A stretch of DNA of 32,000 nt, taken from Candidatus Thorarchaeota archaeon (GTDB lineage Archaea; Asgardarchaeota; Heimdallarchaeia; Hodarchaeales; Hodarchaeaceae). Below are positions 1 to 22,932 of this stretch, piece by piece. A program made the position numbers and the translations under genes. Location of the stretch: the NCBI GenBank assembly GCA_048882505.1, contig JBHLRO010000014.1, positions 30,001 through 62,000 on the forward strand. Direction: 5' to 3'. The stretch's first letter is position 1; each line of letters starts with the position of its first letter. The notes under the pieces are model-generated. The model searched no databases and was not told where the DNA came from. It was given only the letters and a program-made list of their open reading frames with translations.

Positions 1-650
1 GGAGGAGCAGTGCGCCAGCTTGATCTCGCTTTGTTTGAATCTGAGTGAACACTAATGGGCGTGCGCGGCTACGATCAAAATGGACTTCGACCCAATCTTG
101 ATACATCCACACCCCGTCAATCCGGTTAGTATGCCCCATGGTGAAGCTAGCCGCATTGAAGGCCCCAGTGGATGCAACAGCAACATACCCAATAGTTTCG
201 ACCCTATTATGCGTAACGTGATTATCTTCCTCAATGAAGACACCTTGCATAGCTGATCGTGATACATCGTTAAATCTTACCCAGGACGGGGAGGTGCTGT
301 TCCTAGTTTGAAGTTGGGCCACAACGACTGGTTGACTGACAAAATTAGTGTTGAAGGCGTGATCATAGGCCCCCGTTCCGTTGTGAGTGTAAGATCCTAC
401 CTCTATATCTAATCCCGCTACAGAGTAATTTCCAGGTTTAAAGGCCACCCATTCGACGAGCTCATCAAATGCGGGGGCTGAGGCATTGATACCTTCGATT
501 TTCATCTCAAAACTTGCGGCTGTCACATTTGTGATGGCGACATATTCTCCTTGACTATCTTTGTCTGCTGCGGACTTCTTCTTAATCGAGGCCAAAATAA
601 CTGGAATGTAGGCCAAGGTATAGGGAAAGATCACCCGCAACCAGGTATCA
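1..650 (-). other. At least 3 tandem H-type-lectin-like repeats (~85 aa) in giant protein
   Basis: WLRVIFPYTLAYIPVILAS...ITNVTAASFEMKI...ELVEWVAFKPGNY; HAFNTNFVSQPVVVAQLQTRN...WVRFNDVS...FIEEDNHVTHNRVETIGYVAV; WVEVHFDRSRARPLVFTQIQT (truncated). Matches the F..F...PVV.A.LQT.N...V....F...EE...H..ETIGY.A repeat from memory. Confidence 0.7.
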
Positions 651-3600
651 TAGGGCACCATATCCACGGCGCCAGCGGCGCCGAAAATTTCGTCTGAACT
701 GGGGGTAAACACTCCGTTTATTGAGAATTCAGGTTTGCCATCGAAATTGGTATCATGCCCGAATCGGATATAGCCAGTAATCTCCTCATAATCGGTTACT
801 CCATCTTTATCGAAGTCGATAATGGACAGGGGATCGAGGAGGACATCAATATCTCCATCAGCATCAATATCGCTGGCGTAATATTCGGGAGTCTGACTTC
901 GATAATCATCTTTCTCACCGTCCATGTCAGTGTCGTAGTAGTCGTAGGTGTGATCGAATTCATCACGCACCGTAAGACCATCGCCATCCCAGTCAGCATA
1001 CTTCCAATAGAGCCAAATATCACTTTCATTTGAGGATTGGGAACCAATGACTTTCACATCATACCTGTCTTTGGGGTCTAATCCGAAGTGGAGTTCATAT
1101 ATGTCCCATATTCCGTCCCTGTCCGTATCGGGGTTGTTGGGATCCGTAGGGTCAAATTCCGTCTGGGGGCCATAGACCACGGCAGCGGCATCAATTGAGG
1201 TTTTGACCATGACATCGGCTTTATCGATAGTGCGGTTGGGGTACTGTTGGTTGAGGAGCGCTTTGGGTAACCCCATCACCTCTTCTACGTCCCAGAGACC
1301 GTCCGAATCGCTGTCTTTCTTGAGCGGGTTCGTGCTTGAATATGAAATAACGTCTAAGACGGTACCCCAGACTGGTCCGTTCTCATCCCAGTCAACAATC
1401 ACATCACGATCCCCGAAAAAGGATCCATAATATTCCTCGATATTGATCAGGGTGTCATTATTCTTATCGACGAACGCAAAATACTCCTCGTAGTCGGTCA
1501 AGCCATCCTCGTCGGAATCAGGGACAAAGGGTGAGGCGGTGCGCCAACAAGTGGGACATGTGCTCTTATTAGCAGGAACCCCAAACGTGGGATGAGTGCC
1601 ATTGTGCCAACCGTACGCAATGCCCGACGTACTATTGGTATCCCATTCATCATAGAAGACTCCGATTTCATATCCGTCAGGTAATTGATCAAAATCCGTA
1701 TCAGGATTGAGAGGATCGGTCAGATACTTGTATTTTTCATCAAAGTCGCCAATAAGATCTCCATCGGTATCGTAAATCCCAGGATGAGTCTCGTACATAA
1801 CCACAATATCGTAGTAGGTGGTGACACCTTCGGTGATCATTCCGATAGTAGAGGGCGCCGTATTTAGACTTAGATTGGCGACAAGATGACCATCCAATGA
1901 CAAAATCACTAGATTCTCGTATCCAGGAATGATATTGTCTTTCATCTTGAACAGGGTCATGTCATACCAGGTGTTGTACGTGAGATTGATCGGAAGGTCG
2001 GTCACTGAAGTGTTGGGTAGACCATCCTTCTCAACGTAGACTGTATTAGTCTCAATGTCTAACATAAAAGCGTGGGTATCAAATGTCAAACCTGCTCGTG
2101 CGTTTGGTCCTGCCATATCGGACGTAGTATTGACCAGATAGATCATCTCAGAGTAAATCCATCGGTCGTCATCCGCGGTAAAAGCAGTGGTTAAGGTTTC
2201 TCGACTGCCGGAATTCTGTGCAACCAAATACTTATTCGACATGTAAATGGCTGGATCAGGATAGGTACGGTCGAACTCAAGTTTGATGCTCTCCACTCGA
2301 ATGATATCCCATTCAGTCCGATCTACTGGCGCTTTAACTGTCACATTCATACCGTATATGTTCTGCCACGAGTTGTATGTGGTTAAGTTAATAATAGAGA
2401 CCTCGTGATACGTCCCGTTAGTGGTGGGAAGTGGATACAACACACCGTCAATATATACGTCTAAGGTGTGGTTAAATTCGTCTAGGTAGCGGGTATCTGT
2501 CGCTTTCAAATTCCACTTCTCAACTGTCCAGGTCACCTGTAATGTTGTGTTCTCTATTATGGACGGGTCGTTAATGTCATCGCATGTGGGCTGAAGTGGG
2601 CCTAAGTCAGGATCGCCACACAGGTTTCCAGGTGTTCCCACTGCATCCCAGGATCGGTTCATAAACTCGGGTAGGAAGACCCAATTCAAGGCAGCATACG
2701 TACCATTATCGATGTATTCTCGCATGGTGATACGGGCTTTCGGATCCCAGATTTGACCTTCTATGCTAAAGGTAGGATCGACCCCATCTTCCGTATCATT
2801 GTCTTCCACTTCTAGACCGTATTCCTCAAAACCCATTGAGTGACCGACGATTTGGGAGAATTTTCCCAGATTGGTTGCCATTGCGTCCCCGTACCATGTT
2901 CCCTGTTTGTCAAACATCACAGTGAAGGACGAGTTTGCTACAGGGGTAGTTGCATTGATATAAGAGGAATCTGACGGTTCCATCGATTTATAGTAATCAG
3001 CCCATGTGGTGTCATTTACATAGGAATAACCGTAGTTGGGGAATAAAGTATGGTGGGAATTCAAGAGTGGCACACCATCTTCGGTTACATTCCAATTTGC
3101 TGGATCACTAATCGTATCCCAAGGCCCGTCAGTCAGAAGGGAGGATGAATTATAATGCCAGAAACTATCCCCGAAAATGACCTCGTCTGTGTCATTTAAA
3201 CCATCGAAATCGCCATCACCGTTTGTTATATCGAAGGAGTAGGATGGAAAATCTAATTCGAATTCTTCCCTGTCCGACATTCCGTCAAAATCGGAATCGG
3301 GAAGAGTCATATCAGAACCATATATTGCCTCTAAGCCGTCCTTCAAGCCGTCACCGTCGAAGTCAGGAACGATCATTGCCAATACGCCCCATAGTTCCAG
3401 CTCGGTATCGAAGAGACCATCATCAGGGAAGTCAAAGGTCGGATGGCAGTCGAAATCATCACCACCAGGCGTGCAGGCCGCACCATAGTTCTGTAGAAAC
3501 CGTTCGTTCTCCATGATGTACTGGAGTTCAATTTCATTCTGAATCCCATCCCCATCCACGTCCTGCATTGAGACGAAATTGACCCCAAACACTGTATCGT

Positions 3601-6600
3601 TCACTCGTACCTCGGGAATTCCATCGGGGGTGCCTCCCACATTCCCTGTGTTGTCTGGGTATAACGATTCAGCATACCAGGGGATGTCAATGAAGTCACT
3701 AGGATGTGTGTGCAGATTGACGTTGACATTGATCACAGTTTGTCCCGCCACAGTACTTTGGGCTTTAATATAGTCAGAACTATTCGCAAAATACAAGGCA
3801 GCTAAGGCGGATCCATTTGGGAACATGGGTTGCCCAGGTTGCATGGGACCGCCAAAGATCGCGTTCTGAAGGTCTGTCAACGCGTCATCAATAGAATACA
3901 TACCTGGGTTCTTGTCATCCTTATCGATGTGATCGGGGATCAAGTCGCCATCCATGTCGCCATCCCAGTATCCTCCAAAGGATGCAAAAATTTTCTCAAA
4001 GCCAATATTGAAGAGAACGCCCGTAAGTCCAGAGAACAGTACTCCACGTATTCCTCCTGATGAAACGAAAAGGAACGACTGAGCTGTGAGGTGTACTACC
4101 GCAACAATCATATTAGTTAGTTCTTCGCGTGTTATGAGTTTTAAGTCATTCACAATGGTATCGAATAGTTGCTGTACTACGTAGACCCCAGACGATATCA
4201 GCCAGGTTCCAGGGTTATTTACCAATATGAAGTTCAGAACACCTGCTAATCCTTGAACCTCCGCGCCAAATTGGTTTGCGTAGGTACCTAGTCCCCGTAA
4301 TAGATCCTCTTGGAATCCCCAAGGTTGAACTTCTTGTCCTTCTTGGGGAATCAAGTAATCCATGATCGTCTCCGCGGTGTACTCTAGGACACTCTCAGGG
4401 TTAACGGTTGGTAAATTGGCCCCTCGGTTTTCCTCCTCTCGGAATATCTTCGGGAGGGGTGCTCCGTAATTCGACGAGATTGTCTTCCCCGTTGCTGCAT
4501 AGAGTGAAGCGTTATACTCTTCTCGAGACATCGTTGTCTGCCAATCAGGCCGCCCATCGAAATCCACATCTAAGAAAAGATCAGGATCCCGGCCTCGATG
4601 ATAAAAGGCTTCTTCGCCGTCATCCATATAATTGTTGTCGAAGAATGTCCTGGAATCTTCCCAGATTCCTAATTCGATGATATTATCGAAGTTGGTATCT
4701 TCAACCAGGAACCATTTCTTGACAGGACCACTCAGCAACCCCTGCTGATAGGCGGCTACATCAGGTAAAACCCCTGAGTTGTTCTGTTCCGTGAACCAAC
4801 CATTTGCTGGATCCCATAGCGTGTGATGTTTCTGGTAATAAACATCGGAACGGTTCTCTTCGGGGATGTCTGATCCCGTGTTAATGTGATAATAGTAATA
4901 GAAGTCCAAGGCTGGATCTATTCTTTTCGTTGTCCTTCTATCTCCGTAATCGACCCCAAATTCGTCTAAGTGGTTGATTTGTCCGTCTGAATTAAAGTCA
5001 AACTGGTAGAAATTCGTATTATTGACTAAAATGTCCTCGGACCGATTATGCCCATTCCCTGGAGTCGTGTCAACATATAACTCGAATTCGAAATTTCGTG
5101 TGGCATAGAACAGGCCATAGGACGCATCCGAGATATTTCCAGTGCTATAAATGTCAGTTGGTTCAAAGCTAGATACATTGGAAAGGGTTTTGACATTTAC
5201 GGGGAGCAGGTACGTTTTCCCAAGTTCATTCAATTCGAATAAATTCCAACTATTCTCGACGATATCGTCCCCGTCGTCTACCCAGGGGATCGTCTGGAAA
5301 TATTGGTAGTCTAATTTGTAACTCTTCACATAGATACCAGTAAAGACCCCTGTGATCATCTCCTCAATTGCTTCACTCAAGGGACCTGTCATTTTCTTTT
5401 GATAGGTTTTTCCCTTAACGGCCGCAGTAGATCCTAGTCGATTGTCGAACACATTCATTAAGAGATTCATACCTGGCATTTTTTCAATATCGGTCAAAAA
5501 GCCAATCATGGCCAAAGCCCATGCCAGACTCCCATTCCACACCTCCTCCCAGAAATCAGAGCCCATCATATCAGACCAGAGATCCGCAATGGACTCAACC
5601 ATATAATACCCAAAGATTGTTCCCAGGATACCACCCAAGGCAGCGAATGTGGACTGGATAAATGCCTCTTTAGTCGAAAGTTGGGCCTGATCTCCAAAGA
5701 AAACCTTACTTACCGACCTGCCAACCCGTGAACCACCCTGAGCCTGGATGGTGTTAATAATCTTTGTACCAACGACCTCATCGAGGATGTTTTGATCCCA
5801 GGGGACGTGCATCTTGAGACCTTGCGATCTTTCACGCCCTAACACTCTATGGGTTTGAGTCCACTCATTCAAGAAATACTTATCTCGACTCAGATAATTG
5901 GCTATCAACTCCTTCTTCGAATCGTCTGTGAAACGCAAGAATTCATCATATGTGATGTCATAGTACGCCATCAGGTTTCCAACAAACCCGTTATTCTCAT
6001 CCAGGAATGCACCCAGGTGCATTTCCGACTTCAATTCTGCTAGGATTGTCTCTTCCATTATCTGATTCCGTTCTGCCTCGGTGGAAAACATCATCTCCCA
6101 GAGATATACCTCATAGTCGTCGATCCCGAGATGATCCATCACCTGTTGTTCCACTTCAAAGTCTGCCCGCTGTTTTTGGAAAAAGGCATCAGTCATTGGA
6201 ACGATTTCATAGTCGCGGGTGAACGGGGCATTCAATCGGCACGACCCTGCACTGGTTTCGCAGGTGGGGCGTTCCAAACTCTTGATTACTAAGGCGCCCA
6301 AATTATCCCCTAAGACTAGGATGGTTCTATACGCGGTGTCGGTTTCTACCAACTGGACATCAAGATCAATCTCGGTGGGAACGTTATTGGTTCTGAGGAT
6401 CCGATTCAAAATGTCGCTGATACTAATACCCTGTTCATAAGAGTCGGCTTCGAGATATCGATCGCCAAAATGCTGTTGCAGGATGTCTGTAGGATCTATC
6501 CCGCTGAAGATATCCCTCTGTTCTAACTGGTTTACGAGGTTAATGACATCACCGAGGATCGCCTGACGTAAGAAGGTGGTGAAATATATGGCGCCCTCGA

Positions 6601-12600: not shown

Positions 12601-15600
12601 AATCCCCATTCCCAATGTCTCGCATCTCATACAGGGTGCGACTCAACGTAAGACCTTGGAGGGGACTACCTTGATCGGTTGGATATTCATAAGTAATGTC
12701 GGAAGTGAGTCCACGATATACCTCAAGGAGTTGGAAACTGATCTCGACGAGTCTGGGATTGTCTGAAATTTCTTGAAGAGAGATGGTGTCGTCTGCGGCC
12801 TGCGTGAATAGTTCCAAATAATCAAATTTGGCTTCTGAGAGGTCTGAGAACTGACGTATGGTGAGGGATGCATAATTGGTGTCAAAATCGGACTGTGTAA
12901 TGAATTGCCCATCGAATTCCAATAGGGAAGGATCGTCCGTGTCTTCTCTAAACTTGAACACGCGGTAACCTTGATACAGTAGGTTCCACTTTTCGAAAAC
13001 TTCTAGTAGGAGGGTGTTTTTAGGGATCTTAATCAGTCCGACTGAGATAGGATCATAAAGGTATAGGTCATGGGGTATCTGGAAATCCTCAATCTTCAAC
13101 AAGAGCGTCTTAAAAATGGAGGCGAGCTGGAAAAAACTATATTCTTGGGCGGCGGTGTTCCCCTCGATTTGAAGGTCACCCTTTTGTGCGGCAGATCCAG
13201 TAATTTTGTCATTTAATGATTCCCCTGGGAGGGAATTTTGATGCGTAGTTTCCATCGGGGTCAATATATTATCCAAGTGGTCTGTATTTCGAAAGATCCT
13301 GCCTAACTTTACTAATCGTTCTTTCTTCAGTTGACGTCCTGCATCTGTCTCCATGTCCTCGTTAGGGGAATAGCCATAGTTAGGATCATTCATGACCTTC
13401 TCTAGGACATCCATGGTGTCAGGAGACCGAGCTAAGCCTCGGACTATGAAAAAAGATTCGGGATTAGAGCTTTGTATCCTGACACTCCAAGAAAAGAACT
13501 CGGCGTCAACCTGAAGAAATTCGCTGGCCATCCCAAGTTTCTTTGCCATAGAGTAATCAATAAACAAGTCCAACGGTTTACAGTAGAGCTTAATATCCCG
13601 TCGTGTATCAATCCACGACAGACCTACGTGGTTAGTTCGAGTATATCGTGAGGTGAAAAATGGAATACCTTGGGCTAGACCATCGCGAATACTACCTGAT
13701 TTGTCTTCGACCCATTCGGCGGTGGTTGAATCCCAAAACATTCCATCTGTTGTGGCTAAGGAGAATTTACCTAATAGCAGTGCCCCTTCACTTCCGTAAT
13801 GAGGCGTAAACGACCAGGCCATCCAATTATGCATCAGCCCCTCCGTCTTGATTGGTGAGTAGATAGTCCCCTCATCCCCAATAATTGAATCAACAAGGGC
13901 AAGCATCGGGGAATCTTGCCAATCAGAGTCTTGGGGGCGGGGAACTTGACTTTGCTTATAATCCTCCTCGGTCATCCAGTTATATTGGTCATCACTCCCG
14001 TCACTTTGCAAATCGATAGGGAAGGGTTTTCTGATTTCATAATGTTCGTGAATGTCGGGTAAGACGTCTCGTAAAACCCCCTCTGGTGTTATCCGCTGTA
14101 ATGGGGGGATGTATCTTACACTTCCAGCTGTTGGGGTGAGATCCACTCGTTGGGTCCATAGATCTCTGATTTCCCAGAACCATTGCGAAAACAGTAATAG
14201 GTCCGAGCTGCAGGCCCCACAATCTGATGGTCTGGGCGGGACGGCCTGTTGATGGTACATAAAATCGCGGAACCACTTGATTCGTTGTTGTTCGGTTCCA
14301 ATTAAGTCATTGTGATTAAGATGGAGTAGGAGAAAATGGTAAAAATTTTCATAGGGTTTGGTCTCATCATCAGTAGAGAACAATGGTTCGAAAATGGTGA
14401 CATACTCCCGTTCGGGCCCAGGCTGGCCATTGTCGAGGAGAACCACATACTCATTTTGCGCTGCAAAGTCTCCTGTCAGATCCGAAGAAAAGGCAAAATT
14501 GAATAGGTAATCCTGGATTTGGGCAAGCTCGAATTGCGCAAATTCATCCAAACGGATCAAAGCAGAGTTGTCGTATAACACAAAGGTACGTTGAATCCGT
14601 TCATCTTCACCAAGACTGGTCTGGTCATCCGCTATGGCAAGAACTTTAGATCCGAGTGGGATGTCTTGATCGGGTGTATCGGGAAACGTAATCATGCCAC
14701 TTTGGATACTTTCCTTGAATTCACGTTGGTTCATCCACTGCACTGTTCCGTCCGCAAACACAATTCGCCGCAAACGGTGACTAACGACACCTCTCGTCCC
14801 AGAATTTTGGGAGACCAGTATTTGATCCATTAGGGATTTTATTAAACCTCCTGCAAAATTTTGGTATTCCGTTAGGACGATAGGCACTCCTAGACTTACG
14901 AGATACCCGTAATGTCCAGAGGTGGGTAGAACGAGTGGAAGAGACAGGAATCGCTGTAAAAGTGCCGAATCACTGTTAAGGAATTCGGAACCAATTGTGG
15001 AAGCCCGAATGGATTTGTGGATAACACGCTCTTCTAGATCCCTGTCAAAATCAATGTCAATAATGTTTCCATCTCTATCCGTAAAACCTCCAATGGAGAC
15101 CAAATACGTGAGGAAATCCATTCGATCAATAAACCATGTTTTTATTCCAGCTGCCTGTAATATGGTATCCAGGGGGCTTTTTACCGCAAATATAGTAATT
15201 TCATCCTGGATTGAATTAATGTCGGGATCGACTTCCTGATTGCTCAGGGATTGGTCAAACAGCTGATTCAGAAGCATGCCTTGGAGCCATATACTCTCAT
15301 CCCACACAATTTGCCCATTTACTTCATAAATAACGCGTGTTTCCAAAAAAGCATCTCGCATACGCATAGTAACAACCCCATCGGGATGTTGGGTTCCAAG
15401 CGTATCTGCAAGCCCTCCAGCAATGGCTCCATTTATAACGGATGAAACAGCATCGGCTAAAGGATGGGTCTCACTTTCGGAGACAAATTGGGAACCTTGG
15501 GCGGAAATTATCACCTCCTCATCTTGGATTACGGGTGTTGTTTCTCCAAACAAACCGTAAAGGGATTCATCCATATCTTTGATTGCATCGACTGGGATGA

Positions 15601-18600
15601 TCAGATCCCACGTTAATGGAGATGAGGGGTTATTAGGATCCTTTGGGCGCAATCTGATTTGGGAGGTCTCAATGATTTGTGTAAACATCTGTTTAATCGA
15701 TTCATCCAGATTAGCAATCCGAGCAGCACTGCTTTTTAACCCAAAAGGATTTTCTTTTGTTCTTATAGGGTTCTCTTGGGATGCTCGTGTAATAATATTC
15801 AGGATATTACCGAGTTCTGCCAGATCAGTAGCAGAGATGCCAGAATTACTCCCTTGTTTCCTCATGATGTTTTGGACGATACTCATAAAGGCGTCGTAAT
15901 CAATTGCATTACCCGTATCACTGGGGGTATTGGAATCTTCGAGAAGGTTAACAACATCATTTACGACTTGCTCGAGAAATTCAACCTGTAATTGAGGTAT
16001 ACTCGGAAAATTTTCAAATTTTGCTCCGACAGCGTTATCCAAAGCCAGAAGTAAATTCTTGGCGAGTAACCGGCTTTCTGTGACTGGGGAATTGGCTAAA
16101 CCCGTAATCAATTGTAGAAAGTGCTGATAACTCGAACGATCTCTGGCACTGGATTCACTCGATGTATCGGACATGAAAAACGTATCCCCAAATGTAAGAT
16201 CAGAGACGGAAATATCGTTATAAGATTGGAGTAAGGCATCCGCAAACACGGCCAATCCGCTGGTCTCTTTATTCCACTGATCGACTTCTACTTTGCTGCC
16301 CATTGCATCGAAATTTCGGACAAAACGCGTCAGGATTCCCAACCATCCCATAGCTTGTTGGTCATAGTCGTCGTCTAACCCGTTATCGGGAATCCCCCAT
16401 TGTCGATAATACCTACCTGTTGGGTTGGGGGTGCCACTGTCGTCCACACGTTGTCGTCCGTCGTCCCTGAAGGTACCATCGATCACGTCCTTCTCATCTG
16501 CCCCCACGATGTATTCCTCATTGAGATCATTGGGGGATACCAATAATTCCATGAGGGACGGGAGGGTTTGGACTAATTGCTCCAATCCAATTTGGATTAT
16601 AGAATATAATCCCCCTGACAGGACTTCCTGAATGGTATCAAATAGATCACTCACGATGGGGAGAGCGTCCATGAACCCACCGACAAGTCCCTGCAGGGTG
16701 TCCATAATCCATCCTAATTCAACCCCAGGGCGATCTGCTTGTGATGCGGTAACAACAAAATTTAAGACATTCCCTAATTGGTATTTTGGGGCAATTACTT
16801 GTCCGAGCGGCCCATCACCGTACCCCTCGAAGATACCATCCTGATTTCGATCTTGAAGGACGACGAACAGTTCGGTAGGGTCGGCAAAAATCTGTTTCGT
16901 ACTTAGTCCTAAATTTGTGGGAGATTTTCCGACATCATCCCAGTGGATCGCGATAATAATATCTTTTCCTTGTAAGGGCCCCATAGCACTGGATCCTTTG
17001 ACGAGATGCAGACTGAAGGTATCATAATCGGGGTCAACCAGCGCGGTCGATTCTCTCACCCCTTGGATAATCAATCGGTTACTAGAAATATCAGGATCGG
17101 GAATACTACTGTACCGAGTCCCCGCTAGCATACTGGAGGTCAAGGTGTATTTCGAGGTCTCCCCTGCGTCCAACGCATAGCTATACCATTTCCGACCCCC
17201 GTAACTCACATTGGTAGATTCCTCCGCTCCGTAAAATGACGAAATGGCCTGGTACGCCGCCCCATCCTTGCCCTTTTCCATATAAGAAACGGTTCCTGCA
17301 TACCCAGGGGACCACCACTTAGATTCCTCGCGCCCCCCAAGATTAACAGAATACCCGTGTTCTATAAACCCACTGAATTGGGAACACGGATTACAATAAC
17401 TGTTACTGGACGTATCTTTGGCAAAAGTCGGGTAGTCCGTACTTTGTGACCAAACAGGTGAAACTTTATAGACAGAAATCATGTCTACCATACTAACTAA
17501 GCTTAGTAGAATTTGCCCCCAGCCATCGACGCTCTCAACGTTAATCTGTCCCCCACTTCGGGCATCGAAGATATCTTGAACCGCCTCAGCCCATGCTACC
17601 TCATGATATTCTTCCCCTTGCCACGGGGAACTCGGAGAGTCGGGATATTCAAAATCAGTGGTATTAAAATCATAATCGGTCATGAATAAGGCCAGGAGTA
17701 GGTTTTCAAATTCACTCCACTCGACAATGTTGGAGTATTGGCGGGCTGCCTGAGGGAAATCGGCAAGACTGTTGCCTTGAATTACGTCTCCAGCCCCGAC
17801 ACTATAGGAGACTGATCCACTTCCAGTGTAATTGAATTCCTCCAGTAAATTATCAGCCAGTTGGGATTGTAACGTTTTAAGCCCAGTATAGTAGGGTTGG
17901 CCACCCTCAGTATATTTTACGGAGAGTGGTACCCCCGTCCCGAAATAACCTAAGCTCGGTAATCCAAACTCACCTGAAGTGGCGACCCGATCGTGGTTGA
18001 CGTCATACCAAAAAACGTAATCGTTGGGCCCCTTTCCTAGATTGATGGATTGTCCCATTTTCATTGGAATGGAATCATCTGCCCAAATGCTTGAGCTAGG
18101 CCAAAGGGAATCTCCACTATAGACTGGAATGGAAGGTGATGAGACCCCTATTATGCTCGCATGCGATCCGACATCTACAACCGAGCTCATTAGTGGGATC
18201 GGAATCGGGGCGACTCGATCCGAGATTTGAAAGTTACTGATTTCAGTGGTCTGTTCCCCATAGTTATAAAACCAGACGTTTTCTAAGGTGGGGTAACTTT
18301 GACTATTTAAAATGGGAATATAGATGTTACTTCCAACTAATTCCCCATCTAGGAAGACATTCACTAATTCCGTAGTTTCGTCATAAAAAACATCTACATG
18401 ATGCCATGACCAGGGTTGGACTCTGACAACTCCATAGTCTGGTTGACTCCCATAGTCCAACGGAGAATGGGTATAGGTTAATTCATGAAAGTACCGATCC
18501 ATCCCACCAAGGGCATTCCAGAGTGACCCACCAGGCCAATGCCGTAGTTGGGCCCCGTCACCTGGGATCAATGTGTTATCTGGGTACATGCTGTAGTAGT

Positions 18601-21025
18601 TGGTGAAATCTACGATGAACTGGGGGTCATACAGAGAAAGTGTAATATTACTCGCATGCTCATCTTGGATGTCGTCTAGTTGGATCGGGATCATTAAATC
18701 TATGTTCTTGGAATGCGTGGCGTCTCGCTCCATCAATTCCCGAATTCCGACGTCTGAGGTTAGAAATAGACCGATTCCCCCTTCACCCCAACAATCGAAT
18801 CCGATAGCACCACAAATATCATCGTTGGTGGCTGTGTTGGTCTTAGTCTTCCTGAAGTCAAAACTGACTCGCCATTTCCCGGTGGTGGGGAGATTATCCC
18901 CCAAATCGTACATCACCCACCCGTTGTTATCAAGCCAGTGTCCATTCTGGGGTGTTCCTGGGCCATCCCACCAATTAGCGGGAGACCCCACCATTTGTAG
19001 ATCGGAAATGTCACTCGTCAATGCGGCACCTGTATTGATCTGGACACCATCCGTGGACCAATCATGATCAAAGGGTTCATCATCCAGCATTCCATAATCT
19101 TTGATCCCATTCCCGATATACCAACCTTGCAATGTTTCTCCGACCCCCACGGTGTTCACGATATCAGGGCGGGAGTTATTGAATGTAGCAGCAAAATAAT
19201 CATTACTATCACGATCCTCGTCAACCGAATATAGTAAATCTGACCAACTTTGGACGGGTCGTGCGTCGGGGATCTGCAGGGACGACCAAGGACCAAACAT
19301 TTTGGAAATCCATGTACTTAAACGCGCTGCCTGACTCTCAAGGAGTGATACTTCGACCCCCTTAAATTCGCTCAGGTCTTTGTCGAGATAAAACATCTGG
19401 ACTCGATTCCCTTCCTGATCCACCATCTCAACGGTACCAGTGGCAGGATCGCTTAGGATTTCATAATCATCTAAATAATCAGGGGGCTGGAGATCTTCTA
19501 GCGGCCGTTTCAGATGACCGAAATTCTTGCCCTGGTCTTGTGCAAATTCCATCAGCGCGGTTTCTCGTTTGGCCAGATCCTTCTCATAAGATGTCCCTGA
19601 TTGCCTTGAAGCATAATACTGTTGATTGAATTCATTGAGAAACCCTGCTAGAGAGAGGCCATGTTCGGGTGGGATGGTTGCTAATGGTGAGAGATAGGTC
19701 AAAAAGGATGATTGTGGTTGAGTCAGATCAAGTAACCATCGCTCTGTGACATCACTCTCCCTGACGAGTTCGTAAGTCGTATACGACGTCTCTAAAAGAG
19801 TATATTCGACATCATGCTCAAATCTATTATAATCGACGAGGAAGGTCCTGTTGAGGTGGGTAAGGAGTCGCCGATTAGTTTCAATGATTTCTATCTTCGA
19901 TGTACCAGGATATTCGGAATTCACAAGGAGGAGAGTCTGAATGACAGGTTGGACCGCTGAGTCAAAGACGTTTTGCGCATCACTCACCAGTCTATCCGCG
20001 TACTCTATCAAATTTTCCTTGGGATTTAGAATCTCGGTAGTTCTAGGAACAACATCAAATATGGGATGCCTATAACGGAATAAATCTCCCAGTCCAGGGA
20101 TTACCCCAAGGACGCGATTCATGGATCGAACGAATCGTTTATCCAACCAGGGCAAGTAGCGGTGAATAATGGATTCAAAGTCGCTATACCGATATTGAAG
20201 TGAATCCATCCGTTCTAAGGAAGGGTAATCAAAAATCGCAATAATTTCATCCGATTTCGGGGATAGAGTTCGACTAGATTCATCCGCTTGATACCTAATG
20301 CGATGTAAGCGTAATGCGCCGATAAGACTATCATAATCTACAAGATAGCGATAACCTCGCAATTCCCTATATTTATTCATAATTGTCAGGTAGAGTCCTG
20401 CATTTACGTCTACCAATGTGTTAACGCCACTTAATGTACTATTAAGTGGTGATTCGTGAATAATCGGAACATAGACGAGATCCGCGAGTTCGTCACCAAG
20501 GTTAGCGATTTGTATGCGGAGGAATCCCCCCTCCTCGTCGAATTTCAGTCTGGGCACAGCTATCGATACCTTTACGGGGTCTTCTGTATTACCTCGTGTG
20601 TCAGAATATTGATAACCACTAAGATGCCATTCCTCTACACTCGCGGCACGACTATGAACAGAAATTCCCACTTTTGTACCGAAATAATCATCTCCAGGGA
20701 TAAGATACGTTTCCAATTCCGTAATCGATGTATCGTTCAGAAATATTTCGTAACTGAGTGTTTGGGCAGGAAAGAGGACCTCTAATCCCTTCGCCTCAGT
20801 GGGGTGAGTGATGTACTCCGTTACAAGAACATCGGCCATAGTGCTAGGGGTGACTTTTTGTTCGAAGTAATTATTGAAGTATGCTACAAAATAATCGGGC
20901 TGATATACATCCTCAATATCATACAATTCGGCACGATAGCCGTTCATATACGCGGTTGCGAAAGCTCCCACCACAAAAAAGAGCGCAAGGGAGATGTAAT
21001 ATAGTTTAGACTTTTCCAACGTCAT
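1..21025 (-). CDS. Giant secreted/surface protein, >=7008 aa, 3'-partial (runs off left edge); LamG + TSP3-like repeats + ConA-like + H-type-lectin-like repeats; putative giant adhesin or toxin-like protein
   Basis: ATG at 21025, with an in-frame TAA a few codons upstream. Manual translation of every line from 21025 to 2 shows no stop (MTLEKSKLYYISLALFFVVGAFATAYMNGYRAELYD...RPLVFTQIQTKRDQAGALLL). No minus-strand ORF in the track uses this frame, consistent with a frame that never terminates in the window. The function call is inference. Confidence 0.97.
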   Translation of the reverse strand, partial: MTLEKSKLYYISLALFFVVGAFATAYMNGYRAELYDIEDVYQPDYFVAYFNNYFEQKVTPSTMADVLVTEYITHPTEAKGLEVLFPAQTLSYEIFLNDTSITELETYLIPGDDYFGTKVGISVHSRAASVEEWHLSGYQYSDTRGNTEDPVKVSIAVPRLKFDEEGGFLRIQIANLGDELADLVYVPIIHESPLNSTLSGVNTLVDVNAGLYLTIMNKYRELRGYRYLVDYDSLIGALRLHRIRYQADESSRTLSPKSDEIIAIFDYPSLERMDSLQYRYSDFESIIHRYLPWLDKRFVRSMNRVLGVIPGLGDLFRYRHPIFDVVPRTTEILNPKENLIEYADRLVSDAQNVFDSAVQPVIQTLLLVNSEYPGTSKIEIIETNRRLLTHLNRTFLVDYNRFEHDVEYTLLETSYTTYELVRESDVTERWLLDLTQPQSSFLTYLSPLATIPPEHGLSLAGFLNEFNQQYYASRQSGTSYEKDLAKRETALMEFAQDQGKNFGHLKRPLEDLQPPDYLDDYEILSDPATGTVEMVDQEGNRVQMFYLDKDLSEFKGVEVSLLESQAARLSTWISKMFGPWSSLQIPDARPVQSWSDLLYSVDEDRDSNDYFAATFNNSRPDIVNTVGVGETLQGWYIGNGIKDYGMLDDEPFDHDWSTDGVQINTGAALTSDISDLQMVGSPANWWDGPGTPQNGHWLDNNGWVMYDLGDNLPTTGKWRVSFDFRKTKTNTATNDDICGAIGFDCWGEGGIGLFLTSDVGIRELMERDATHSKNIDLMIPIQLDDIQDEHASNITLSLYDPQFIVDFTNYYSMYPDNTLIPGDGAQLRHWPGGSLWNALGGMDRYFHELTYTHSPLDYGSQPDYGVVRVQPWSWHHVDVFYDETTELVNVFLDGELVGSNIYIPILNSQSYPTLENVWFYNYGEQTTEISNFQISDRVAPIPIPLMSSVVDVGSHASIIGVSSPSIPVYSGDSLWPSSSIWADDSIPMKMGQSINLGKGPNDYVFWYDVNHDRVATSGEFGLPSLGYFGTGVPLSVKYTEGGQPYYTGLKTLQSQLADNLLEEFNYTGSGSVSYSVGAGDVIQGNSLADFPQAARQYSNIVEWSEFENLLLALFMTDYDFNTTDFEYPDSPSSPWQGEEYHEVAWAEAVQDIFDARSGGQINVESVDGWGQILLSLVSMVDMISVYKVSPVWSQSTDYPTFAKDTSSNSYCNPCSQFSGFIEHGYSVNLGGREESKWWSPGYAGTVSYMEKGKDGAAYQAISSFYGAEESTNVSYGGRKWYSYALDAGETSKYTLTSSMLAGTRYSSIPDPDISSNRLIIQGVRESTALVDPDYDTFSLHLVKGSSAMGPLQGKDIIIAIHWDDVGKSPTNLGLSTKQIFADPTELFVVLQDRNQDGIFEGYGDGPLGQVIAPKYQLGNVLNFVVTASQADRPGVELGWIMDTLQGLVGGFMDALPIVSDLFDTIQEVLSGGLYSIIQIGLEQLVQTLPSLMELLVSPNDLNEEYIVGADEKDVIDGTFRDDGRQRVDDSGTPNPTGRYYRQWGIPDNGLDDDYDQQAMGWLGILTRFVRNFDAMGSKVEVDQWNKETSGLAVFADALLQSYNDISVSDLTFGDTFFMSDTSSESSARDRSSYQHFLQLITGLANSPVTESRLLAKNLLLALDNAVGAKFENFPSIPQLQVEFLEQVVNDVVNLLEDSNTPSDTGNAIDYDAFMSIVQNIMRKQGSNSGISATDLAELGNILNIITRASQENPIRTKENPFGLKSSAARIANLDESIKQMFTQIIETSQIRLRPKDPNNPSSPLTWDLIIPVDAIKDMDESLYGLFGETTPVIQDEEVIISAQGSQFVSESETHPLADAVSSVINGAIAGGLADTLGTQHPDGVVTMRMRDAFLETRVIYEVNGQIVWDESIWLQGMLLNQLFDQSLSNQEVDPDINSIQDEITIFAVKSPLDTILQAAGIKTWFIDRMDFLTYLVSIGGFTDRDGNIIDIDFDRDLEERVIHKSIRASTIGSEFLNSDSALLQRFLSLPLVLPTSGHYGYLVSLGVPIVLTEYQNFAGGLIKSLMDQILVSQNSGTRGVVSHRLRRIVFADGTVQWMNQREFKESIQSGMITFPDTPDQDIPLGSKVLAIADDQTSLGEDERIQRTFVLYDNSALIRLDEFAQFELAQIQDYLFNFAFSSDLTGDFAAQNEYVVLLDNGQPGPEREYVTIFEPLFSTDDETKPYENFYHFLLLHLNHNDLIGTEQQRIKWFRDFMYHQQAVPPRPSDCGACSSDLLLFSQWFWEIRDLWTQRVDLTPTAGSVRYIPPLQRITPEGVLRDVLPDIHEHYEIRKPFPIDLQSDGSDDQYNWMTEEDYKQSQVPRPQDSDWQDSPMLALVDSIIGDEGTIYSPIKTEGLMHNWMAWSFTPHYGSEGALLLGKFSLATTDGMFWDSTTAEWVEDKSGSIRDGLAQGIPFFTSRYTRTNHVGLSWIDTRRDIKLYCKPLDLFIDYSMAKKLGMASEFLQVDAEFFSWSVRIQSSNPESFFIVRGLARSPDTMDVLEKVMNDPNYGYSPNEDMETDAGRQLKKERLVKLGRIFRNTDHLDNILTPMETTHQNSLPGESLNDKITGSAAQKGDLQIEGNTAAQEYSFFQLASIFKTLLLKIEDFQIPHDLYLYDPISVGLIKIPKNTLLLEVFEKWNLLYQGYRVFKFREDTDDPSLLEFDGQFITQSDFDTNYASLTIRQFSDLSEAKFDYLELFTQAADDTISLQEISDNPRLVEISFQLLEVYRGLTSDITYEYPTDQGSPLQGLTLSRTLYEMRDIGNGDYRHISQVTEVSDPAYDGRSQRDRWLTGTPLVFLTSAAFFNAKSQVAREVLTHPETGELIAEMSEGIIDSSDTTYAAVSVPKQMAGSGSTRDNQFSWQLLSLKSYHQRMRGIKNPKTGSAIDQEWQNTFMYKYVQHDGKVFCVTYAEALNLHQQDPTFPDPTGSKWNDKVIFSVFRPGSTKAWWEDDQTTRALEDPDPQNPNNHPVLTMKQIYGTHEPQFDLAFQSAIDNGFVVRHPSGRASRFQFVREISADIGISGTRVVARDLDVSPGPNGWQNPSPIAAQDANYNYQRDGNQEEGSNTRRPAWWDIRTGQISFTQPTSSWGSIPFAWIPGLHRIVTAVLTSDGTYAWLEPGEDPAGRTTIQIPITGWVKDGRVTSQDATLGSMGGSEIYSLRKFFLYKGLMDWVSQEEFFRLAVQYFYSDANIITPQIQSFIEFEDSSKLNPKSLANQPQAVQDYFKTFFDTKLLDEGPTKEVLSTLGLYRFGNELESYKLANGPLTQVNSDGDREFTPEFLADRSGRASPYGENTNVLRIDPFTQQIIEVAPNYVYRQIHDPILGYLWEGTPRDELLTLNSAQTVRTWEKTFEEKTRHLSIPYLGGENQIDEAIQNVQYPVLQKTGKTIWKHVVGIKTSAGGRIVQYVGTKTNAILQRFKKLVTEGWLMKTPKRPFRDGTRAIYQRSTHEKQNLLRTTSASKQLRRTRTINQFLSYLQSNFGGTVKYKFTRKINQRLHFTLRDGKVMLNFRRLDPSGETITIPYGEFARSLLNLDDTRTATIEAELQRQFTPDESGRYTTQSLVIELIEDLAKGTFRTRILREDPETSLGATLEGQLSGSDLEFSTKTGVTLVISNIKQMMSKLFASDDYSGVDGNLVQTANQIMVTETIDSEYITHEFAKLEPVRVKDARGDEHIVILIITKEYDKDALPGDSHFLDWDYSEVNKLVYQLRKNNISRKKEDLLTEPELQELLTKYPNIGANFFVFADNDLDNDLPLRSPARDFVSKILTFLSILENHPDASAVGHSFRMITENYGVYEGEPVIQSESEMSGQPVAGSNVPNRPSKVSSFGRNIIQSVVSLVKNSLIGRRAMEQQNIVDGEDLEGTPIDKTGIRIEPSRFDVWYRTGNKRFLPGRIDQNGKYERDISITNQIRDQDNRIIGYREGIVAHLHTPPQGDTDDPTSRLPTVEQIVQQIHQDQGGTDILHVTLPINWAPFSPLRNIYPNVRYPPQNLVSGIPTPDDNYDQFLSDFLLEGQMSIRDATRNAHDRGLTISTPSTAVIASFASVPILPYFLTTDPPHIISVDGKDYLFTADPGSYDTFQRALAARKALLIDFAGIQISDQNQRELKQALLILTTLVANPHIGYDGITDPLLGLGKDDAHGVYLYDRRFTDVPDTIGEYNLQLGQGNLQLVDAVRLVEYYYKNQAGEWVRHVGYFSWTSIDRLIDSGEILIGPLDNNDPNNLSASDQDKNVIYQRWKARAGEKIKPSDARTKLNVIRAGLTDTEREELDKRLWVGKYGIFEVQNPSNVKFFIERTTPTSSIQDTKRFLGIISLELSFQEQNMGALLATNDLATRGPLGMTVGDLQSLVVGRNAIHQMRELGASYLPEPSSNTPRRDLDDIQATLRNTESFRSKIMSLIGRVNSPNAWSSIRSMYNGVAKLTSRLYQKLNLNMISLYLNRKRRANDYQNSVLDILVDLATKIEGSDLLLRSPNLELTIRTTDDGGAQILDTISRLSFPDAQEALVRHYFEIIDRAVENSPFYDSSVPISQHYVVGNPSTSVGTVDHQGYAPFDPNDIGALVEFVDAQQQVLGTGRLISYVGTQIQIRRLGGKIPISSTEIRILGQPRGLVTIDKAWGSGNEETRRNQAGVILIPDNTIFDKIFQDDLAVIYWDNYPKVSVSTLKANIAFSVDSASNIDELSTIAGTLVNTFYLPGMGLRTVADHYQQYSSRRQHVGTISVSRDVLDDKVDAMLTKLLFEYPSQVWQDDPSGHQQLDLSQIFVDIPIEGAIYFTTFLRQAILGDVINLVNQLEQRDIFSGIDPTDILQQHFGDRYLEADSYEQGISISDILNRILRTNNVPTEIDLDVQLVETDTAYRTILVLGDNLGALVIKSLERPTCETSAGSCRLNAPFTRDYEIVPMTDAFFQKQRADFEVEQQVMDHLGIDDYEVYLWEMMFSTEAERNQIMEETILAELKSEMHLGAFLDENNGFVGNLMAYYDITYDEFLRFTDDSKKELIANYLSRDKYFLNEWTQTHRVLGRERSQGLKMHVPWDQNILDEVVGTKIINTIQAQGGSRVGRSVSKVFFGDQAQLSTKEAFIQSTFAALGGILGTIFGYYMVESIADLWSDMMGSDFWEEVWNGSLAWALAMIGFLTDIEKMPGMNLLMNVFDNRLGSTAAVKGKTYQKKMTGPLSEAIEEMITGVFTGIYVKSYKLDYQYFQTIPWVDDGDDIVENSWNLFELNELGKTYLLPVNVKTLSNVSSFEPTDIYSTGNISDASYGLFYATRNFEFELYVDTTPGNGHNRSEDILVNNTNFYQFDFNSDGQINHLDEFGVDYGDRRTTKRIDPALDFYYYYHINTGSDIPEENRSDVYYQKHHTLWDPANGWFTEQNNSGVLPDVAAYQQGLLSGPVKKWFLVEDTNFDNIIELGIWEDSRTFFDNNYMDDGEEAFYHRGRDPDLFLDVDFDGRPDWQTTMSREEYNASLYAATGKTISSNYGAPLPKIFREEENRGANLPTVNPESVLEYTAETIMDYLIPQEGQEVQPWGFQEDLLRGLGTYANQFGAEVQGLAGVLNFILVNNPGTWLISSGVYVVQQLFDTIVNDLKLITREELTNMIVAVVHLTAQSFLFVSSGGIRGVLFSGLTGVLFNIGFEKIFASFGGYWDGDMDGDLIPDHIDKDDKNPGMYSIDDALTDLQNAIFGGPMQPGQPMFPNGSALAALYFANSSDYIKAQSTVAGQTVINVNVNLHTHPSDFIDIPWYAESLYPDNTGNVGGTPDGIPEVRVNDTVFGVNFVSMQDVDGDGIQNEIELQYIMENERFLQNYGAACTPGGDDFDCHPTFDFPDDGLFDTELELWGVLAMIVPDFDGDGLKDGLEAIYGSDMTLPDSDFDGMSDREEFELDFPSYSFDITNGDGDFDGLNDTDEVIFGDSFWHYNSSSLLTDGPWDTISDPANWNVTEDGVPLLNSHHTLFPNYGYSYVNDTTWADYYKSMEPSDSSYINATTPVANSSFTVMFDKQGTWYGDAMATNLGKFSQIVGHSMGFEEYGLEVEDNDTEDGVDPTFSIEGQIWDPKARITMREYIDNGTYAALNWVFLPEFMNRSWDAVGTPGNLCGDPDLGPLQPTCDDINDPSIIENTTLQVTWTVEKWNLKATDTRYLDEFNHTLDVYIDGVLYPLPTTNGTYHEVSIINLTTYNSWQNIYGMNVTVKAPVDRTEWDIIRVESIKLEFDRTYPDPAIYMSNKYLVAQNSGSRETLTTAFTADDDRWIYSEMIYLVNTTSDMAGPNARAGLTFDTHAFMLDIETNTVYVEKDGLPNTSVTDLPINLTYNTWYDMTLFKMKDNIIPGYENLVILSLDGHLVANLSLNTAPSTIGMITEGVTTYYDIVVMYETHPGIYDTDGDLIGDFDEKYKYLTDPLNPDTDFDQLPDGYEIGVFYDEWDTNSTSGIAYGWHNGTHPTFGVPANKSTCPTCWRTASPFVPDSDEDGLTDYEEYFAFVDKNNDTLINIEEYYGSFFGDRDVIVDWDENGPVWGTVLDVISYSSTNPLKKDSDSDGLWDVEEVMGLPKALLNQQYPNRTIDKADVMVKTSIDAAAVVYGPQTEFDPTDPNNPDTDRDGIWDIYELHFGLDPKDRYDVKVIGSQSSNESDIWLYWKYADWDGDGLTVRDEFDHTYDYYDTDMDGEKDDYRSQTPEYYASDIDADGDIDVLLDPLSIIDFDKDGVTDYEEITGYIRFGHDTNFDGKPEFSINGVFTPSSDEIFGAAGAVDMVPYDTWLRVIFPYTLAYIPVILASIKKKSAADKDSQGEYVAITNVTAASFEMKIEGINASAPAFDELVEWVAFKPGNYSVAGLDIEVGSYTHNGTGAYDHAFNTNFVSQPVVVAQLQTRNSTSPSWVRFNDVSRSAMQGVFIEEDNHVTHNRVETIGYVAVASTGAFNAASFTMGHTNRIDGVWMYQDWVEVHFDRSRARPLVFTQIQTKRDQAGALLL
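730..1790 (-). other. TSP3-like (bacterial-type) Ca2+-binding repeat cluster 2
   Basis: DTDGDLIGDFDE, TDPLNPDTDFDQLPDGYE, PDSDEDGLTDYEE, TNPLKKDSDSDGLWDVEE, DPNNPDTDRDGIWDIYE..FGLDP, DWDGDGLT, DTDMDGEKD, DIDADGD, DFDKDGVTDYEE, DTNFDGKPE. Confidence 0.88.
1790..2170 (-). other. ConA-like/LamG-type beta-sandwich (second copy) in giant protein
   Basis: ARAGLTFDTHAFMLDIETNTVYVEKDG...LTYNTWYDMTLFKMKDN...NLVILSLDGHLV...STIGMITEGVTTYYDIVV. Shows the W-x-x-(M/L) ... LDG-x-L-V pattern of ConA-like folds. Confidence 0.6.
3170..3962 (-). other. TSP3-like Ca2+-binding repeat cluster 1
   Basis: DGDMDGDLIPDHID, DVDGDGIQNEIE, PDFDGDGLKDGLEAIYGSDMTLPDSDFDGMSDREE, DGDFDGLNDTDE. Confidence 0.85.
18210..18970 (-). 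other. LamG/concanavalin-A-like domain in giant protein
   Basis: WLDNNGWVMYDL...GKWRVSFDFRK...GAIGF...QPWSWHHVDVFYDETTELVNVFLDGELVG...NVWFYNY...EISNFQISD. Contains the WHHV...vFLDG hallmark. Confidence 0.72.
20951..21025 (-). other. Sec signal peptide / N-terminal membrane anchor of giant protein
   Basis: MTLEKSK (basic n-region), LYYISLALFFVVGAF (h-region), ATA (A-x-A cleavage motif). Confidence 0.8.
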
Positions 21026-21087
21026 GCGACAGTCCAATCCTTAAACGAAATCTACGGTATAGCGAGAAGTATTCCTTTCTCATCGGA

Positions 21088-21095
21088 TATTTATA
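21088..21095 (-). promoter_or_regulatory. Archaeal TATA box of giant gene (TATAAATA)
   Basis: Plus strand tatttata equals TATAAATA on the minus strand, starting 70 nt upstream of ATG 21025. Confidence 0.7.
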
Positions 21096-21099
21096 GCCC

Positions 21100-21122
21100 T
21101 ATGATCTGAAAATTGGATCATA
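21100..21122. promoter_or_regulatory. Palindromic operator copy 1: TATGATC-N9-GATCATA
   Basis: Perfect 7-bp arms, 4 bp from the TATA box; near-identical copy at 22837-22859. Confidence 0.75.
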
Positions 21123-21290
21123 CTCCCTCTTAAGCTATTTTCCCATGAAAATACACCGTTAGAATAAACATAATCCCAGGCAAAATATATCGAGACCAAT
21201 GTGAAAATACTATGAAAGAAAACGGATTTGAATGGAGATCAGATAGCTGAATTCTTTTAAGGGAAGATAAGTGAACTTGGATTGAACTCT

Positions 21291-22836: not shown

Positions 22837-22859
22837 TATGATCCAATTTTTCGATCATT
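22837..22859. promoter_or_regulatory. Operator copy 2: TATGATC-CAATTTTTC-GATCATT
   Basis: 20/23 identical to the reverse complement of 21100-21122; lies in the intergenic gap upstream of the wHTH gene. Confidence 0.72.
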
Positions 22860-22871: not shown

Positions 22872-22932
22872 GTTTTTTTCTTGTGTCTTCGGAAAGAGAC
22901 GAATTCCCAGAGGGACACAATTGAGTGGTTCA

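Follow-up and report, generated by a model that had tools for sequence, protein, structure and literature searches.

A 14,724-residue predicted surface protein gene of a Hodarchaeales-type Asgard archaeon, with a sequon-depleted orphan core and a caspase/legumain-type C-terminal domain

We analyzed a 32,000-nucleotide (nt) stretch of an Asgard archaeal genome (the window; positions 30001-62000 of contig C14, GenBank JBHLRO010000014.1, in genome G000, assembly GCA_048882505.1) and found that it carries the 5′ part of a single minus-strand gene with a predicted product of 14,724 amino acids (aa). This gene, referred to here as the giant, makes up 1% of the genome, and its product would have a mass of about 1.6 MDa before glycans. 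Our results describe a real, intact and largely orphan gene for a predicted surface protein, with a function that we infer from its sequence. We consider the chances about even that the giant is a fast-evolving, lineage-specific, N-terminally anchored exported protein that serves in cell contact at the surface of a Hodarchaeales-type Asgard archaeon.

A listing of open reading frames (ORFs) with open ends allowed reveals a stop-free minus-strand frame of 7,012 codons that runs from window position 21037 to the left window edge, where it is still open at its 3′ end. An earlier note made from the window had proposed a hidden giant gene here, and following the contig leftwards, as it had suggested, confirmed the gene and led to its stop and true C-terminus, a clan-CD peptidase homologue. 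The stop lies at C14:6851-6853 and the whole gene spans C14:6851-51037, with 23,150 nt to the left of the window edge. It comprises 14,728 codons if a TTG is taken as the first, and it encodes 14,724 aa when read from the first Met of the frame, an ATG at window 21025 that is the likely start; the earlier note had the frame and this ATG right, and understated the length (at least 7008 aa) twofold. We number residues from the TTG codon, such that aa i lies at contig position 51037-3(i-1). Contig C14 contains no N, and a Logan contig from run X1 (53,240 nt, ~30x) covers window 1100-21099 with no differences, indels, joints or loose ends. As run X1 is probably the source sample, this comparison represents an independent assembler rather than independent data; identical low-depth fragments of the gene occur in two further samples of the same study. 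The giant gene is no assembly chimera, and neither the chimeric join nor the frameshift named as a danger in the earlier note was seen. The parts of the giant that lie in the window are as follows, all on the minus strand:

2..21037, minus: window part of the giant ORF, codons 1-7012 of 14,728 (ORF listing and independent assembly)
20948..21004, minus: N-terminal hydrophobic signal anchor or signal peptide, aa 12-30, LYYISLALFFVVGAFATAY (Kyte-Doolittle hydropathy (KD) 1.79; conservation)
16142..21025, minus: N-module, aa 5-1632 (homology to stand-alone genes)
16538..16720, minus: conserved amphipathic/hydrophobic segment, aa 1440-1500 (hydropathy, paralogue alignment)
5678..16537, minus: orphan core, aa 1501-5120, unique, non-repetitive and sequon-depleted (searches, sequon counts, repeat test)
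5438..5665, minus: Gly-rich hydrophobic cluster 1, aa 5125-5200, with a glycine-zipper-like GGILGTIFG (hydropathy)
3968..4270, minus: Gly-rich hydrophobic cluster 2, aa 5590-5690, several marginal helices, KD 1.0-1.65 (hydropathy)
3182..3391, minus: TSP3-like Ca-binding cluster 1, aa 5883-5952, three DxDxDGxxDxxE motifs (TSP3_bac E 0.003, below cut-off)
743..1813, minus: TSP3-like motif cluster 2, aa 6409-6765 (pattern; partial CglD match)
440..637, minus: H-type-lectin-like stretch, aa 6801-6866 (E 0.0063, 17.1 bits against a cut-off of 24)

The segment at aa 12-30 is the sole strongly hydrophobic helix of the giant, in agreement with the export signal predicted in the earlier note. It is nearly invariant in the paralogues of the N-module and in protein P0003, homologues that are otherwise ~40% identical to the giant, and because of this near-invariance it is more readily read as a retained signal anchor than as a disposable signal peptide. 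Two intact, stand-alone paralogues of the N-module are encoded in the same genome at C44:213-5396 (1,728 aa) and C38:15988-21225 (1,746 aa), with 38-39% identity, and a decayed copy of aa 5-488 at C66:2067-3495 (minus strand) is spread over three frames with TGA, TAA and TAG stops. P0003, a complete 991-aa gene from another, unrelated sample, matches aa 12-952. The N-module was not found in 82 other genomes of the class and has no Pfam match, and in a 5.8-billion-protein collection the matches to the N-module, as to the C-module, were the host's own paralogues and P0003 only. A LamG domain had been proposed at ~aa 640-945, and we rejected it: this part has no Pfam or PDB match, and its hhalign comparison with the giant's own LamG_3 domains gives a probability of 4%, with a strand motif alone aligning.

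N-x-S/T sequons are distributed very unevenly along the giant:

aa 31-1440: 8 observed, 9.5 expected; neutral
aa 1501-5120: 2 observed, 23.3 expected; z -4.8
aa 5201-12500: 187 observed, 87.5 expected; z +12.5, mainly N-x-T
aa 12501-14000: 2 observed, 13.7 expected; z -3.6

The depletion in the core is specific to N-x-S/T, as the control motifs N-[ST], N-x-x-[ST], D/Q-x-[ST] and N-x-[AG] are flat. The longest sequon-free run in the giant measures 2,484 aa, while the genome's other ORFs reach 1,023 aa at most, and among 1,980 windows of 3,620 aa drawn from the genome's non-membrane ORFs the minimum is 5 sequons, versus 2 in the core. Since these non-membrane (cytoplasmic) ORFs carry sequons at 0.93 of expectation, a cytoplasmic location does not predict the tenfold depletion of the core. 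Instead, the pattern points to a core that comes within reach of the glycosylation enzyme and is under selection to remain free of glycans. The host genome encodes an STT3/AglB oligosaccharyltransferase (168 bits), and the giant combines an N-terminal export helix with sequon enrichment, as in archaeal N-glycosylated surface proteins, its glycans being predicted. In agreement with this reading, the genome's only other significantly sequon-depleted ORF (1 observed, 7.1 expected) encodes another exported protein, a 1,001-aa ORF on C1 (frame offset 67672) with a signal peptide and TSP3 repeats related to the TSP3 clusters of the giant.

Cysteines also show a pattern of their own. They make up 0.31% of the giant and 0.17% of its core, versus 1.03% in cytoplasm-like and 0.42% in secreted-like ORFs, and 40 of the 45 have a partner within 25 aa (random mean 6.3, maximum 22, in 20,000 trials), which is the spacing that short-range disulfides would require in an exported protein. 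Just five cysteines are unpaired, among them Cys14647, which we return to below.

The core was an orphan in every search that we made. Pfam was run over all 14,728 residues, with large pieces at first and ~1,000-aa ones afterwards, and returned nothing for aa 1-5300, while PHROGs and NCBIfam returned nothing for aa 1-7012 except a partial CglD match on the TSP3-like repeats. A PDB sequence search with aa 1-5000 and aa 10001-12000 gave no match, an ESM Atlas feature search with the core gave best scores of 0.76-0.80, at noise level, and aa 2001-3500 had no match in the 5.8-billion-protein collection. There was no credible match to the core in 40 relatives or in 399 other Asgard genomes, a group in which the earlier note had advised a search for homologues, and core peptide patterns were not found in JGI metagenome contigs or IMG/VR. 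A motif scan (HExxH, Walker A, GxSxG and others) showed nothing telling. The orphan core of ~3,600 aa described in the earlier note is thus borne out. We also rejected the idea that this core is a repeat stalk: in an all-against-all window comparison of the giant, all 48 repeat pairs (2 in a shuffled control) fall in aa 5800-13600 and none in aa 1-5700, a result that does not by itself make the core a cargo. Two basic islands stand out in the otherwise acidic protein, one at window ~10300-10670 (aa ~3455-3580; net +13 per 60 aa) and one at ~7560-7740 (aa ~4433-4492; net +11 per 60 aa).

Hydropathy upholds the Gly-rich hydrophobic segments that had been described as closing the core, and the sequon-rich region begins directly after cluster 1. 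An AlphaFold2 (AF2) model of aa 4601-5720 from a single sequence has a predicted local distance difference test score (pLDDT) of 32, and the helices of cluster 2 appear only in this low-confidence model. Farther along, the TSP3 repeats of the earlier note stand as 17 DxDxDGxxDxxE motifs in three clusters when identified by pattern, and are sub-threshold in Pfam; its lectin-like repeats come down to a single sub-threshold H_lectin match (E 0.006). Residues ~5700-12670 also hold two ~250-aa modules, seven tandem ~110-aa immunoglobulin (Ig)-like repeats and unique β-rich sequence. With 7-8 tandem Ig-like units, the bulk of the giant does not consist of such repeats, as it would in a repeat-stalk adhesin. 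A second sequon-free stretch, aa 12672-14200, contains Ig-like units and the two LamG_3 domains (aa 12694-12870, 62 bits, and aa 13147-13293, 69 bits; Pfam cut-off 27.6), which are the only Pfam families above cut-off in the whole giant. The idea of binding modules at both ends of the protein is not supported, because it came from a truncated view: the supposed C-terminal end is mid-protein, and 7,700 more residues follow.

These residues end in a tip domain of ~270 aa (aa 14458-14728), which is conserved in a copy on contig C56 (38% identity) and in the same-genus genome G012 (30% over ~490 aa). An exhaustive search of 1.84 billion representatives with a profile of the giant and C56 tips found 11 proteins only, and distant relatives among these pass Pfam cut-offs for Peptidase_C14 or Peptidase_C13. 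Against the PDB, the tip-family profile had metacaspase-4 as its best match (E 4.6e-4), along with the caspase-like GSU0716 and with GPI transamidase, and an hhalign comparison of the tip family alone with Pfam-verified C13/C14 proteins alone gave a probability of 98.9% (E 1e-17, 193 columns). In the PDB matches, the catalytic His pairs with YxGH and the catalytic Cys with NTC, corresponding to IIVNYGGH(14599) and LFVFNTC(14647), with a hydrophobic strand preceding each; the hhalign comparison aligns the same catalytic columns. Both His14599 and Cys14647 are kept in the C56 and G012 copies; the relative P0006 is without the His. By profile comparison, the tip is a clan-CD (caspase/legumain-type) peptidase homologue with an intact His-Cys dyad and a predicted activity. 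Pfam returned nothing for aa 14001-14728 at E <= 0.5, and the tip stays below the gathering thresholds of both Peptidase_C13 and Peptidase_C14. An AF2 model of the tip built from two sequences (pLDDT 38) shows only an alternating helix/strand pattern. Two of the relatives, P0005 and P0006, sit on contigs of less than 2.1 kb, and their contexts are uninformative.

The C56 copy gives a view of how the 3′ end of the gene evolves. It is a truncated, 1,446-codon version of that end (C56:1055-5392, plus strand) that begins at aa 13281, within the second LamG_3 domain, and lacks a separate N-terminus. Up to aa ~13666 it is 73-91% identical to the giant, with an unsaturated synonymous divergence (dS) of 0.46-0.85 and a ratio of nonsynonymous to synonymous divergence (dN/dS) of 0.08-0.31. 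Beyond that point identity falls to 20-48% and dS is saturated, and the frame is intact despite this saturation. Judged by these divergences, the copy is a mosaic in which a recent part is joined to a tip that is old and divergent, and because of the step in synonymous divergence we attribute it to recombination or gene conversion. The gene downstream of the giant, a convergent gene for a membrane-anchored 591-aa β-helix protein from a family with many copies per genome, was copied along with the giant's 3′ end (C56:5395-6675, minus strand). In G012, the orthologous locus carries an ORF of at least 1,410 aa, cut by the contig end, that has only the tip in common with the giant; the N-module and core were not found in G012. 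By these comparisons, the giant gene turns over very fast, the tip family excepted.

From the reading frame and its integrity, the motif and sequon statistics, the tip homology, the paralogues and the mosaic copy, we propose the following model for the giant as an anchored contact protein. Its N-terminal helix would target the chain to the Sec pathway and would probably stay as a membrane anchor, leaving the chain extracellular. The membrane-proximal N-module and the 3,620-aa core, kept glycan-free by selection, would probably form a functional base, with marginally hydrophobic Gly-rich helices at its limits that are perhaps in or on a membrane. Residues ~5200-12670 would form a long, heavily N-glycosylated spacer, with TSP3-like Ca-binding stiffening and with Ig-like and β-sandwich modules. 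This spacer would present an unglycosylated distal head made up of the two LamG_3 domains, Ig-like domains and the C-terminal clan-CD cysteine-peptidase domain, and the head may diversify via recombination with the truncated, silent C56 copy. Its role would most likely be contact with other cells or polymers, and the enzyme at the tip would have as its target either a substrate bound by the head or the giant itself.

Several points weigh against this model. The giant protein is known here from its gene, its adhesive function is read from domain types that mostly lie below Pfam thresholds, and the peptidase assignment comes from sequence profiles, the AF2 model of the tip having failed. The giant lacks a known C-terminal anchor, and it has no domain of the S-layer type. 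Export is supported by a composition classifier trained on the host genome (balanced accuracy 0.89, also without N, S and T), which scores nearly all windows of the giant as secreted-like, including most of the core; its training classes, however, are heuristic and defined by hydropathy, and it scores the core stretches at ~2250-2700, ~3300-3750 and ~4800-5250 as cytoplasm-like. The K+R content of the core (9.4%) lies between that of cytoplasmic-like (12.2%) and secreted-like (7.0%) ORFs. Finally, hydrophobic segments mark the sequon-free core at either end. We keep a cytoplasmic core as the main rival because the sequon desert has these hydrophobic borders and because two paralogues look like type-I membrane proteins with tails that are homologous to the start of the core.

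In this rival, which we regard as unlikely while taking it seriously, the giant is polytopic: as in the paralogues, the N-module (aa 31-1440) would lie outside the cell with a membrane segment behind it, the core would sit in the cytoplasm as one giant domain, and the chain would leave the cell again at cluster 1 (aa 5125-5187) for a glycosylated 9,000-aa ectodomain, making the protein a scaffold or receptor that couples the surface to the interior. The desert begins after aa 1276 and ends at aa 5168, with a hydrophobic region at each end, and the segment corresponding to the first of these is transmembrane (TM)-like in the C44 and C38 paralogues (KD 1.8-2.0). These paralogues look type-I membrane-like, with K/R-rich, sequon-free tails after the TM-like segment, and aa 1500-1632 of the giant are homologous to the tails. 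The three cytoplasm-like stretches of the core and its K+R content, 9.4% versus 4.3% in the part predicted to be glycosylated, would also fit a cytoplasmic location. In the giant itself, however, aa 1441-1500 are amphipathic (KD <=1.25, hydrophobic moment 1.4-1.9), with conserved acidic residues that are odd for a plain anchor. A strongly conserved DDGRQ...NGLDDxYDQ motif follows this segment. Moreover, the cytoplasm does not predict the sequon depletion, the Cys content of the core is far from that of cytoplasm-like ORFs, and most core windows are secreted-like.

A second rival, which we hold to be improbable, takes the giant as a contact-dependent delivery protein resembling polymorphic toxins: the stalk and LamG head would bind a neighbor cell, the Gly-rich helices would insert in its membrane, and the clan-CD peptidase would free the naked core as cargo or itself be a toxic tip, with C56 as an orphan tip cassette. 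The core is large, unique, glycan-free as judged by its sequons and closed by glycine-zipper-like marginal helices, and the giant carries a clan-CD peptidase homologue; MARTX and large clostridial toxins have autoprocessing domains from the same clan (MEROPS family C80). The C56 copy joins a recently shared "handle" to an old, divergent tip, and CDI/Rhs loci have orphan cassettes that combine a shared handle with a divergent tip. The gene also differs sharply between species of one genus. On the other side, there is no homology to toxin, translocation or immunity families in Pfam, NCBIfam, PHROGs or PDB sequences, the peptidase lies at the extreme C-terminus rather than ahead of the cargo, and the membrane insertion would depend on putative hydrophobic helices, modeled with a pLDDT of 32. 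The downstream immunity gene that the earlier note had envisaged was not found, with the convergent beta-helix gene next to the giant in its place. Its comparison of the giant to the logic of MARTX and clostridial toxins therefore stays an analogy, as the new parallels, the peptidase and the cassette-like copy, fit a variable surface protein equally.

The boldest version, to which we give slightly less credence still, is a cell-to-cell effector machine, anchored in the Asgard cell and reaching a partner or prey cell by means of its glycan-shielded stalk and LamG head. The Gly-rich helices would enter the other membrane, the glycan-free core, freed by the clan-CD peptidase, would be a delivered or membrane-remodeling payload, and tips would be swapped in from a silent cassette. 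If true, the archaeal lineage closest to eukaryotes would possess a contact-dependent delivery system for which no homologue is known. In a milder variant, the core would be a giant cytoplasmic domain that ties surface contacts to the Asgard cytoskeleton.

That the giant is a non-working gene, an assembly artefact or a decaying relic open by chance, has next to no probability: decayed family copies do exist in the same genome (C66 frameshifted, C56 truncated), no RNA data set was among those listed for this DNA and the core is without relatives in the searches made, but 44,184 stop-free nt cannot arise by chance, an independent assembly is identical, GC1/GC2/GC3 are gene-like, the enriched and depleted sequons and the paired cysteines are marks of selection, and promoter- and terminator-like signals are present.

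We compared the giant with known systems of very large proteins. Bacterial SiiE, LapA and MpIBP and haloarchaeal halomucin are megadalton adhesins dominated by tandem repeats. The giant resembles them in its megadalton size, export, Ca-binding and Ig-like modules and distal ligand-binding domains, and differs in that its repeats, all of them within aa 5800-13600, account for a minority of the protein, and one third is unique orphan sequence. With MARTX and large clostridial toxins it shares a very large size, predicted secretion, binding repeats, hydrophobic segments and a clan-CD cysteine peptidase domain. Unlike them, it has no similarity to their repeats, pore/delivery region, effector domains or C80 peptidase, its own peptidase is C13/C14-type and C-terminal, its host is archaeal and the protein is probably N-glycosylated. 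The comparison with CDI/Rhs-like polymorphic toxins yields a cassette-like copy with a dS step, and no recognizable toxin domain or immunity gene. The tip is homologous to C14 metacaspases/orthocaspases and to C13 legumain/GPI-transamidase, sharing the His-Cys dyad with its preceding strands, and differs in falling below both Pfam thresholds, forming a small family of its own and being fused to the end of giant surface proteins.

Among archaea, proteins of more than 10,000 aa are few and mostly Asgard (bioRxiv 10.1101/2023.11.21.568195), and LamG_3 is the commonest domain in archaeal proteins of more than 5,000 aa, which have no known function (PMC11573180). Like the latter, the giant has an archaeal host, more than 5,000 aa, LamG_3 domains, a predicted surface location and no assigned function. 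Its LamG_3 domains lie near the C-terminus, whereas theirs are N-terminal in the commonest architecture, and it differs further in its ~5,000 familyless N-terminal residues, sequon-free core and clan-CD C-terminus. The aloposons of Ca. Heimdallarchaeum consist of tandem Otus/Ephialtes giant genes encoding 3,000-6,000 aa, which adjoin a site of integration at a tRNA and are preceded by four genes, one of them for a MinD/ParA ATPase; "many unrelated giant genes" were also reported (PMC8813620). As with these, the giant gene belongs to the Heimdallarchaeia lineage, is poorly annotated and varies between genomes; here, however, it is single, has no co-directional upstream genes and has a core without a match in the 399 Asgard genomes. 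We rejected the aloposon reading, as there is no tandem partner, no tRNA in 52 kb (C14:1-20000 and the window) and no ParA among the neighbors. Overall, judged by its domains, the giant fits the loose known class of giant archaeal LamG-bearing surface proteins and no toxin family. Three of its features we did not find in earlier descriptions: the non-repetitive core of 3,620 aa that is purged of sequons, the caspase/legumain-type domain at the C-terminus and the mosaic silent tip copy. The same genome holds a second giant ORF of 10,062 aa, on the plus strand of C10, that is unrelated to the giant by BLAST.

The giant gene is a unit of its own, because its 5′ neighbor is divergent and its 3′ neighbor convergent, and a terminator-like hairpin followed by a T-run lies 3′ of its stop. 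Upstream, we identified the following elements by sequence, one of them shared with a neighboring gene for a winged helix-turn-helix (wHTH)-like protein:

21088..21122, minus: promoter region, with TATA-like CTATAAATAT / TATAAATA at 21095-21088, ~63 nt upstream of the ATG
21101-21122, minus: 22-nt palindromic site, copy 1, 5 nt upstream of the giant's TATA-like element
22837..22858, plus: 22-nt palindromic site, copy 2, 91% identical, upstream of the wHTH-like gene and its operon

The palindromic site reads TATGATCCAATTTT[CT][AC]GATCAT, and its two copies are oriented alike relative to their genes; exact ATGATC-N9-GATCAT occurs four times in the genome, versus 0.43 expected. The operon of the wHTH-like gene includes a PQQ/Big_13 surface protein, and the palindrome pair suggests that the giant is co-regulated with this neighboring surface-protein operon. 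The surface protein, a PQQ-propeller/Big_13 protein of 1,273 aa (window 23627-27448, plus strand), is membrane-anchored and has a full-length orthologue in G012 (L050:21-3827, minus strand; 48% identity), 3.7 kb from the ORF with the caspase-like tip. On the evidence of these orthologues, the PQQ/Big_13-giant locus is conserved but rearranged between same-genus genomes. The neighboring ORFs at 21282-22808 (508 aa), 22921-23613 (230 aa), 27449-28225 (258 aa) and 28222-30966 (914 aa) have no Pfam match at E <= 0.001, and the 508-aa ORF has homologues of 30-33% identity across the genus.

The host genome (4.32 Mb, 83 contigs, 94.6% complete) carries an archaeal small-subunit (SSU) rRNA and a full-length eukaryote-type actin (440 bits), in line with the archaeal host named in the earlier note. 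The actin is 96-100% identical to those of metagenome-assembled genomes named Candidatus Hodarchaeota, Hodarchaeum mangrovi or Heimdallarchaeota. Contig C14 belongs to this Asgard host lineage, because the PQQ/Big_13 gene that flanks the giant has its 48%-identical orthologue in the same genus. A foreign origin by composition was rejected: the giant gene has a GC content of 44.7%, versus 41.1% for the genome, which places it at the 87th percentile of genes, within the genome's spread and not as an outlier, and its GC1/GC2/GC3 values are those of a gene.

The giant is among the largest archaeal genes on record. Its alternation of sequon-rich and sequon-free regions may offer a simple marker that separates shielded spacers from working surfaces in archaeal giants, and its caspase-type tip is small enough for expression and assay. 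Hodarchaeales are placed closest to eukaryotes, and the touching, holding and exchange between partner cells are central to models of eukaryote origin. Differing almost wholly from its same-genus counterpart, the giant gene would be a concrete case of the rapid invention of surface machinery in Asgard archaea.

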